Part shown: one piece after another, positions 2,447 to 15,339 of the stretch
Position numbering within the stretch: position 1 is the first letter of the stretch
How the letters are laid out: every line of letters begins with the position of its first letter
Assembly: GCF_009931435.1 (NCBI RefSeq)
Contig: NZ_CP043414.1
Reading direction: 5' to 3' (one strand)
Origin: Escherichia coli
GTDB lineage: Bacteria; Pseudomonadota; Gammaproteobacteria; Enterobacterales; Enterobacteriaceae
DNA length: 64,000 bases
Notes under the pieces: generated by a model
What the model saw: the letters and a program-made list of their open reading frames with translations, nothing else
Database searches by the model: none
What the model was told of the DNA's origin: nothing
Program-made: the position numbers and the translations under genes

Positions 2447-5704
<3,258 letters not shown>

Positions 5705-12875: not shown

Positions 12876-13415
12876 TTATACTTTGTTATTCAAAATCAGT
12901 TGCCCGTTGCCATCTAACGGGATCTGCGTACCCGGATCGCGGTCCATGCGGATTTTGCCCTGCTGATCGCCAATCTTATAGGTCACATCATAACCGAGCA
13001 TTTTTTCTGACTTGTCATACACCGTTTTACAACGCTGTTGCGTAGTCGTGTAAGTATCGCTTTCCTGGAGAGAGCCCTGGATCTGGTTACCGGCATAGCC
13101 ACCTCCCAGCGCCCCCACAACAGTGGCGACATCTTTACCGCGACCACCGCCAAACTGATGCCCTATCACGCCGCCAGCAACAGCGCCGAGCACCGACCCG
13201 GTAATGCGATTTTCATCCTGCACCGGTCGACGATGGGTCACTGTGACGTTGCGACACTCCTGACGCGGTGTTTTAACCGTTTCCTTGATTGGGGTTGCAG
13301 AAACAACCTGAGCGTATTGCGGGCCACGTTCAAACACGTTCAGACTGGCCACTGCCGCTACGCCCAACGCAGCTGCGACACCAATCCCCATACCCGCCAA
13401 CATTGATTTATTCAC
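12876..13415 (-). CDS. ycfJ: Glycine-zipper (17-kDa surface-antigen-like) membrane protein YcfJ
   Basis: Gly-rich segments GAVAGGVIGHQFGGGRG and VVGALGGGYAG; start placed at GTG 13415 with a strong SD (aaggagg, 7-nt spacing), giving 179 aa; ATG 13403 is the alternative. Confidence 0.8.
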   Translation of the reverse strand: MNKSMLAGMGIGVAAALGVAAVASLNVFERGPQYAQVVSATPIKETVKTPRQECRNVTVTHRRPVQDENRITGSVLGAVAGGVIGHQFGGGRGKDVATVVGALGGGYAGNQIQGSLQESDTYTTTQQRCKTVYDKSEKMLGYDVTYKIGDQQGKIRMDRDPGTQIPLDGNGQLILNNKV

Positions 13416-13540
13416 GGGAACACCTCCTTCTTTGCTGTTATGCCAATCATGCAAGTGAAGGAGAAAAGCAGCTATCAGACAGAAGATGAAAAGCGCGGGA
13501 ATGGCTGGAAATACTTAGGGATTCGGAGGAGTCTGAAGGA

Positions 13541-13641: not shown

Positions 13642-14946
13642 TTAATGCAACTTCAAACGTGGACGGATAACGCGGTTAATACTCCCCACCAGCATCATTA
13701 ATCCGGTTTTAAAGTAACCATGCAGCGCAATCTGATGCATTCTGTATAGCGAGATGTATACAAAGCGCGCAATTCGTCCTTCAATCATCATTGAGCCGCG
13801 CGTCAGGTTACCCATCAGGCTACCGACGGTGGAGAAGTTCGACAGCGATACCAGAGAACCGTGATCTTTATACTGATAATTTTTCAGCGGCTTACCGTTC
13901 ATCTGCGCCAGAATGTTGTTCATTGCGCAGGTTGCCATCTGGTGTGCGGCCTGCGCACGCGGCGGAACAAAGCCCCCTTCCGGACGCGGGCATGACGCGC
14001 AGTCGCCAATAGCGTATATGTCTGGATCGCGAGTGGTTTGCAGCGTCGGTTCCACCACCAGCTGGTTGATACGGTTGGTTTCAAGACCACCGATATCTTT
14101 CAGGAAGTCTGGCGCTTTGATCCCGGCTGCCCACACCATCAGATCAGCCTCAATATATTCACCATCTTTAGTGTGCAGGCCGCCTTCATCAGCACTGGTG
14201 ACCATGGTTTGCGTCAGCACGCGAACGCCAAGTTTCGTTAACTCATTATGGGCCGCAGCAGAGATACGTGGCGGTAATGCAGGCAAAATACGTTCGCCCG
14301 CTTCTACCAGTGTTACGTTCAGGGCTTCGTTGGTCAGGCCTTTGTAACCATAGCTGTGCAGTTGCTTGACCGCGTTGTGCAATTCTGCGGAGAGTTCTAC
14401 ACCCGTCGCGCCGCCGCCGACAATCGCAATGTTCACTTTACCATTCGCGCCCAGGTTGGCGGAGTATTTCAGGAACAGATTCAGCATCTCCTGATGGAAA
14501 CGACGCGCCTGATGCGGGTTATCGAGGAAAATGCAGTTCTCTTTGACTCCTGGCGTATTGAAATCGTTAGAGGTGCTGCCCAACGCCATTACCAGGGTGT
14601 CATAGGCGATTTTACGTTCCGGAACCAGCAGTTCACCTTTCTCGTCGCGCAGTTCTGCAATAGTGATTGTTTTCGCTTCACGATCGATATCAATGACGGA
14701 ACCCAGCTGGAACTGGAAACCATGATTGCGCGCATGGGCCAGATAGCTCAACGCATCGACGCCTTCATCAAGCGAGCCAGTCGCCACTTCGTGCAGCAGC
14801 GGTTTCCACAAGTGGCTGTGGTTACGATCGACCAGCGTAATTTTGGCTTTTTTCTTGCGTCCCAGCTTATGTCCCAGCTGTGTCGCCATTTCCAGCCCAC
14901 CAGCACCGCCGCCGACAATCACAATTTTTTTCAATGGCGTAGTCAA
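13642..14946 (-). CDS. ndh: Type II NADH:quinone oxidoreductase (NDH-2)
   Basis: Start at TTG 14946 gives [25 protein letters not shown] (434 aa) with two dinucleotide-binding motifs; the track ORF begins 9 codons upstream. Confidence 0.9.
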
Positions 14947-15208
14947 CGTGACCCCCTTAAATTTATTAACCAATTGTTAACTAATGGTTATTAATATAGC
15001 TCTTAATTAACAACAGGTTACAGCAATGAAAATGTTCTTCGTTATTGAGAATAACATGAATGGTGCATTGGTCATACCAAAATTGATGTTAATCAAGTTT
15101 TGTTGCTGAAAAGATAGGCTGATTTACCGGATGAGATCAAAAAATACAGCTTATTGTTTATTATTTAAACGAATTCAGGAGGGTGAGACGTATATGGAGG
15201 GCGTTTGG

Positions 15209-15339
15209 TAGGCCTGATAAGACGCGAGCGGCGTCGCATCAGGCACATTGCCAGTGTCGGATGCGGCGTGAACGCCCTATCCGACCTACAGAATTTACAG
15301 AATCTGGAACGCATCAGGTATCAGCAAGGTTACCTGATG
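15209..15339. repeat. REP/BIME cluster plus perfect 9-bp-arm inverted repeat downstream of ycfP
   Basis: taggcctgataagacgcgagcggcgtcgcatcaggc, gtcggatgcggcgtgaacgccctatccgacctac, and catcaggta-N10-tacctgatg. Confidence 0.7.

Follow-up and report, generated by a model that had tools for sequence, protein, structure and literature searches.

At which codon does translation of ndh begin in this Escherichia coli genome, and does the identity of that codon carry regulatory meaning? The window analysed here is a stretch of 64,000 nucleotides, to which all positions refer unless a locus is named, and ndh lies on its minus strand. Mechanical ORF calling extends the gene over 13642..14973 (-), giving a 443-aa product that starts at a TTG at 14973-14971. 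A preliminary description of the locus had noted this non-ATG beginning, nine codons too far upstream, and proposed that a second TTG, at 14946-14944, gives the known N-terminus of the type II NADH dehydrogenase (NDH-2) and is a rare start codon on a tightly regulated gene. Our analysis upholds this account. We conclude, with a probability of about 0.95, that ndh is translated from the TTG at 14946-14944 and that no other start contributes significantly. Annotation, the ribosome-binding site, the orthologues, the onset of coding constraint and the poor conservation of the upstream extension lead to this codon independently of one another; the 443-aa product of the longest ORF is wrong for this gene and the 434-aa call is right.

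Read from 14946, the ndh CDS (13642..14946, minus strand) comprises 1305 nt, 434 codons with the stop following, and encodes a type II NADH:quinone oxidoreductase according to its ORF, RefSeq and Pfam. A Pfam search matched residues 6-338 of the product to PF07992, the pyridine nucleotide-disulphide oxidoreductase fold (E=9.4e-65), and two GxGxxG motifs are present, GGGAGG at residues 12-17 for FAD and GGGATG at residues 177-182 for NADH. Solved NDH-2 homologues include B. subtilis YjlD (9pxk, 3e-42) and the enzymes of S. aureus (5na1, 4e-35) and C. thermarum (4nwz, 3e-28), and all three alignments begin at residues 4-7 of the ndh product. An NCBIfam search of the product returned no model above its cut-off, so the family assignment rests on Pfam, the PDB homologues and the RefSeq annotation. 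According to the literature, the NDH-2 of E. coli is a respiratory NADH dehydrogenase that does not pump protons, an activity that the present product would share. The gene order ycfP-ndh-ycfJ is conserved and the ndh region was matched in 5425 of 5426 complete E. coli genomes; with a 551-nt query across the region most strains are 90-95% identical, because of indels in the REP-containing ycfP-ndh spacer.

The minus strand reads TTTAAGGGGGTCACG (in longer form, AATAAATTTAAGGGGGTCACG) followed by TTG ACT ACG CCA TTG AAA AAA ATT GTG ATT GTC GGC GGC GGT GCT GGT GGG, and the codons after the first TTG (14944..14946, minus strand) encode the known N-terminal sequence of NDH-2. The annotations agree with this placement: the RefSeq/PGAP ndh occupies 2805..4109 of locus L001, its CDS start at 2805 maps to window position 14946 and its product has 434 aa, while the same 1305-nt gene with the same TTG start is annotated in K-12 as b1109. 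Between about 15039, where the leader probably begins, and the TTG there is neither an ATG nor a GTG, and no in-frame ATG occurs until codon 20, past the GGGAGG motif for FAD. A non-ATG start is therefore forced by the sequence. Such a start is rare but not out of place here. Initiation at UUG accounts for 3% of E. coli gene starts, against 83% for AUG and 14% for GUG (Hecht et al. preprint, 10.1101/063800), and two of the 39 annotated neighbouring genes, ndh and plsX, begin with TTG, so that one or two TTG-start genes per 64-kb window match expectation. The TTG start of plsX is annotated in a near-identical RefSeq genome and maps to window position 33414 (-). No further TTG start occurs among the 39 neighbours, and the SD-like pairing of plsX (-7.6 kcal/mol) is weaker than that of ndh.

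Immediately upstream of the ndh TTG, the Shine-Dalgarno (SD) sequence UAAGGGGGU (14951..14959, minus strand) forms a 9-bp duplex with the 3' end of 16S rRNA, made up of eight Watson-Crick pairs and one G-U pair, at -12.4 kcal/mol. Only two of the 39 neighbouring genes, for which the median is -6.1, have a stronger pairing. The SD is separated from the TTG by the four nucleotides CACG (14950-14947), or by five if counted from the last G, within the distance of about 4-9 nt for a canonical UUG start. This pairing would position the 30S subunit at the TTG, and initiator fMet-tRNA would then decode the UUG through a first-position mismatch. Bacterial UUG starts are read in this way, with formyl-Met inserted, and because fMet-tRNA reads the UUG, NDH-2 would begin with formyl-Met and not with Leu. 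Since residue 2 is Thr, methionine aminopeptidase would be expected to remove the Met, leaving a predicted mature N-terminus of TTPLKK. UUG is intrinsically weaker than AUG and is paired here with an unusually strong and well-spaced SD, and NDH-2 output would therefore be set by the combination of the two. In reporter assays, output from the three canonical starts AUG, GUG and UUG as a group is 10-100% of that from AUG (10.1101/063800). In comparative work, sub-optimal start codons tend to accompany stronger SD sequences (PMC5622118), a pattern that ndh, with its TTG and strong SD, fits.

The TTG start of ndh is already known, a 45-year-old published fact that is in the standard annotation, and ndh serves as a textbook case of rare start-codon use. 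In their 1981 study, Young et al. reportedly matched the N-terminal protein sequence of the purified enzyme. Our result on the start is chiefly a quality check on longest-ORF gene calling. The UUG start was published by Young, Rogers, Campbell, Jaworowski and Shaw (1981, Eur J Biochem 116:165-170, PMID 6265208), and the citation of this original ndh sequence paper, reference 27 of PMC3237581, carries "UUG initiation codon" as its subtitle. A neighbouring gene, ycfJ, is also over-extended by its longest ORF: the mechanical ORF (12876-13454, minus strand) starts at a TTG at 13454 and gives 192 aa, while the RefSeq start is a GTG at 13415 giving 179 aa, preceded by the strongest SD of the neighbourhood, AAGGAGGTG (-17.3 kcal/mol).

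Other codons could in principle open the ndh frame. The upstream TTG (14971..14973, minus strand), from which a 443-aa product would be made, is the first start-capable codon past an in-frame TAA (14979-14977), two codons after it, and its frame runs without a stop into ndh in E. coli, Salmonella and some Citrobacter, amounting to 22 of the 81 sequences compared. However, it has no SD (duplex +0.8 kcal/mol) and its frame is not conserved. Only 30 of the 81 sequences keep it in frame, the other 51 having indels of 1-2 nt that shift it, and in others of the set a stop codon intervenes after it; the distance from one TTG to the other is 25, 26, 27 or 28 nt across the 81. The motif around it, caaTTGg, is kept as a piece of an AT-rich, non-coding inverted repeat and not as a codon. 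Moreover, RefSeq and the K-12 annotation ignore it, and Young et al. 1981 reportedly placed initiation at the UUG from which the short protein is made. We regard translation from this codon as highly improbable. It is also very unlikely that the upstream TTG serves as a second start in E. coli and closely related bacteria, yielding a minor N-terminally extended NDH-2 proteoform beside the 434-aa protein. The nine-codon extension is open in an Escherichia/Salmonella/Citrobacter subset and E. coli genes often have alternative starts close together (PMC13245402), but the same absence of an SD and of conservation at the upstream TTG speaks against dual use, and the TRAINSPOTTER, TetRP and Salmonella riboproteogenomics supplements give no alternative ndh start. 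The gene (ndh/b1109) is itself absent from these three sets of supplementary tables, and trypsin-based N-terminomics would be expected to miss it, since trypsin leaves an N-terminal peptide, (M)TTPLK, of just 5-6 residues.

Within the gene, two further in-frame codons are start-capable, the GTG at codon 9 (14920..14922, minus strand) and the ATG at codon 20. The GTG has no SD (-0.9 kcal/mol) and sits inside the first Rossmann beta-strand, KIVIVGGG, so that a start there would cut into the strand, while a start at the ATG would remove this strand together with the GGGAGG motif. Codons 2-8 vary purely at the third position and are therefore translated, which refutes a downstream start; we give it practically no credence.

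Conservation among relatives bears out the TTG at 14946-14944. Orthologues were collected in one scan of species-representative genomes, from which the best 80 loci, all from Enterobacteriaceae and with 92-100% protein identity, were taken. In these other species the homologous start codon is TTG in 67 of the best 80 loci, ATG in 7 and GTG in 6; neither CTN nor TTA, to which an ordinary leucine codon would be free to change, is found at this position in any of the 80, and bases 2 and 3 of the codon are invariant among them. The preliminary description had named the orthologues as a check on the TTG and its SD, and the comparison returned start-capable codons only, behind an SD whose G-run shows little or no variation across 79 sequences. 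A neighbour-joining tree of 79 sequences served for counting substitutions by parsimony. On average, 0.3, 0.2 and 10.2 changes fall on positions 1, 2 and 3 of ndh codons 2-21, and coding constraint therefore begins straight after the TTG.

The ATG starts belong to Kluyvera and relatives (7 of the best 80 loci), and the GTG starts to two Raoultella, Pseudocitrobacter, Yokenella, K. georgiana and Enterobacter sp. Bisph1 (6 of the 80). In 12 of these 13 non-TTG species the spacer is 4 nt, as against the usual 5 nt, and the sequences suggest a route from cacGTTG to cacGTG, by loss of one T, and on to cacATG. At four loci an ATG (L042, L081) or a GTG (L043, L048) abuts the conserved TTG on its 5' side and in frame, at locus positions 1498-1503 (for example GGGGGTCATGTTGACT); in these the start could lie one codon earlier, with very short SD spacing. 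Two loci are anomalous. In Citrobacter amalonaticus (L024, a single-contig assembly) an additional G is present in the SD G-run and there is an apparent frameshift at ndh codons 5-6, both at about locus positions 1470-1510, and in Leclercia NCTC13032 (L060) ndh failed the intact-CDS check. Both cases are probably homopolymer assembly errors and not pseudogenes.

Within the species the codon does not vary detectably. We searched complete E. coli genomes with a 37-nt query centred on the ndh TTG; a match requires an exact 28-nt seed and is therefore lost if any of the 19 central nucleotides, the TTG among them, differs. The query matched 5406 of 5426 genomes, and about 19 others differ somewhere in the central part. 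The same 37-nt query carrying ATG, GTG or the GTG created by a one-base deletion matched none of the 5426. The ndh TTG is thus effectively fixed in E. coli.

Whether selection holds the weak codon in place is a separate question from whether it is the start. The tree shows at least 4 changes at the first base of the start codon, compared with a median of 20 changes at the 149 four-fold sites of ndh, of which only 2.7% changed 4 times or fewer, four-fold sites being an imperfect neutral yardstick. Together with the absence of ATG and GTG variants from all 5426 E. coli genomes, this difference supports the reading that the TTG is selected as a cap. We suggest, with hesitation, that mild selection keeps the TTG, possibly capping synthesis of an uncoupled, peroxide-forming dehydrogenase; the odds for this lie somewhere between doubtful and even. 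The fuller proposal, that purifying selection across Enterobacteriaceae maintains the TTG as a translational cap that works with the strong SD and the leader inverted repeat, is tentative and on balance unlikely. If it holds, transcriptional control by FNR and PdhR would act on an mRNA with a low, fixed translational ceiling.

We give roughly an even chance to the view that the TTG is a real start whose identity has no regulatory meaning, a near-neutral codon that is offset by the strong SD and persists by inertia. Species representing 13 of the best 80 loci have switched to a stronger codon, ATG or GTG, with the SD kept and without apparent harm, which also weakens the case for a selected cap, and start-codon selection is generally weak (PMC5622118). 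In laboratory evolution that favoured more NDH-2, the PdhR box was mutated and no start-codon change was reported there (PMC12510636). Set against inertia is the rate itself: changes at the first base of the start codon, where A or G would still work, are about fivefold rarer than those at the four-fold sites of ndh, the adjoining spacer bases -1 and -2 have changed 7-10 times, and the missing ATG and GTG variants in E. coli point the same way. The sole new angle of this work is quantitative, namely that across some 80 enterobacterial species the TTG varies less than synonymous sites do. This would fit selection that limits synthesis of an energetically wasteful, ROS-generating NDH-2, and would be a small refinement and not a discovery.

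The description of ndh as tightly regulated agrees with the literature on its transcription. FNR directly represses ndh from a site at -50.5 (PMC3688515, Table 1), a PdhR box lies upstream of the gene and its mutation raises ndh expression (PMC12510636), and control by IHF and Arr is the subject of a work cited as reference 64 of PMC2634741. In the window, a motif match to the perfect FNR consensus, TTGATTAACATCAA, is found at 15083..15096 (-), a predicted repressor site upstream of the promoter. Taking its centre, 15089.5, with the published -50.5 would place the transcript start near 15039 and give an AU-rich leader of about 93 nt (14947..15039, minus strand). A scan upstream of ndh for consensus sigma-70 promoters found none, so the leader length rests on the published FNR position. 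A half-site, TTGATctcaTCCGG (15127-15140, minus strand), lies 44 bp further upstream of the FNR box, a spacing that suits two FNR sites. Between the FNR box and the presumptive -10 region, motif matching also located a PdhR-type palindrome, TTGGTATGACCAA (15068..15080, minus strand), which we infer to be the PdhR box of PMC12510636.

The leader also contains an AT-rich inverted repeat, TAACCTGTTGTTAATTAA ... TTAGTTAACAATTGGTTA (14967-15020, minus strand), that hardly varies among 31 Enterobacteriaceae species, a conservation well above that of synonymous sites. The predicted leader RNA forms a long hairpin from it, in which the invariance leaves no covariation to be seen. Each arm may be read as resembling an IHF-type site, TAACAAnnnnTTA, and the repeat may act either in the DNA, as a binding site for protein, or in the RNA. 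We also considered an RNA structure that masks the start. The minimum-free-energy fold pairs CGUUGAC of the start region with GUCGGCG of codons 11-13; however, the fold of the whole leader does not outperform those of shuffled sequences (z = -1.38) and orthologues show synonymous variation in the partner codon GUC, and this candidate was rejected. An Rfam search of the leader for a riboswitch or known RNA returned only the upstream, REP-derived naRNA4 and sub-threshold noise. The match to naRNA4, a REP-derived nucleoid-associated RNA, falls at 15211-15286 in the ycfP-ndh spacer, with a minus-strand score of 70.9 bits and a plus-strand score of 47.3 bits.

These features can be compared with known systems. 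The ndh of K-12 (b1109, NP_415627.1) is identical to the present gene from the SD through codon 6 and has the same annotated start and 434 codons, and promoter, leader and start region are nearly identical between the two. The differences are all at strain level: codon 7 differs synonymously (AAA vs AAG), the leader carries a few substitutions, and the REP-containing ycfP-ndh spacer has indels. Among other genes, rpsT, which encodes ribosomal protein S20, resembles ndh in having a UUG start that is decoded as Met. The UUG of rpsT is implicated in autogenous translational control by S20, whereas the documented control of ndh is transcriptional and we know of no translational regulator for it. 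The rpsT TTG has Ribo-RET support and an N-terminal peptide, MANIKSAKKR (supplement of PMC13245402), and infC, which encodes IF3 and has an AUU start, is a confirmed non-canonical start (10.1101/063800). The infC AUU is like the ndh UUG in that a sub-optimal start codon sets the expression level. IF3 disfavours the AUU of its own gene, creating a feedback loop; because UUG is a canonical start, unlike the AUU of infC, feedback of this type is not expected for ndh.
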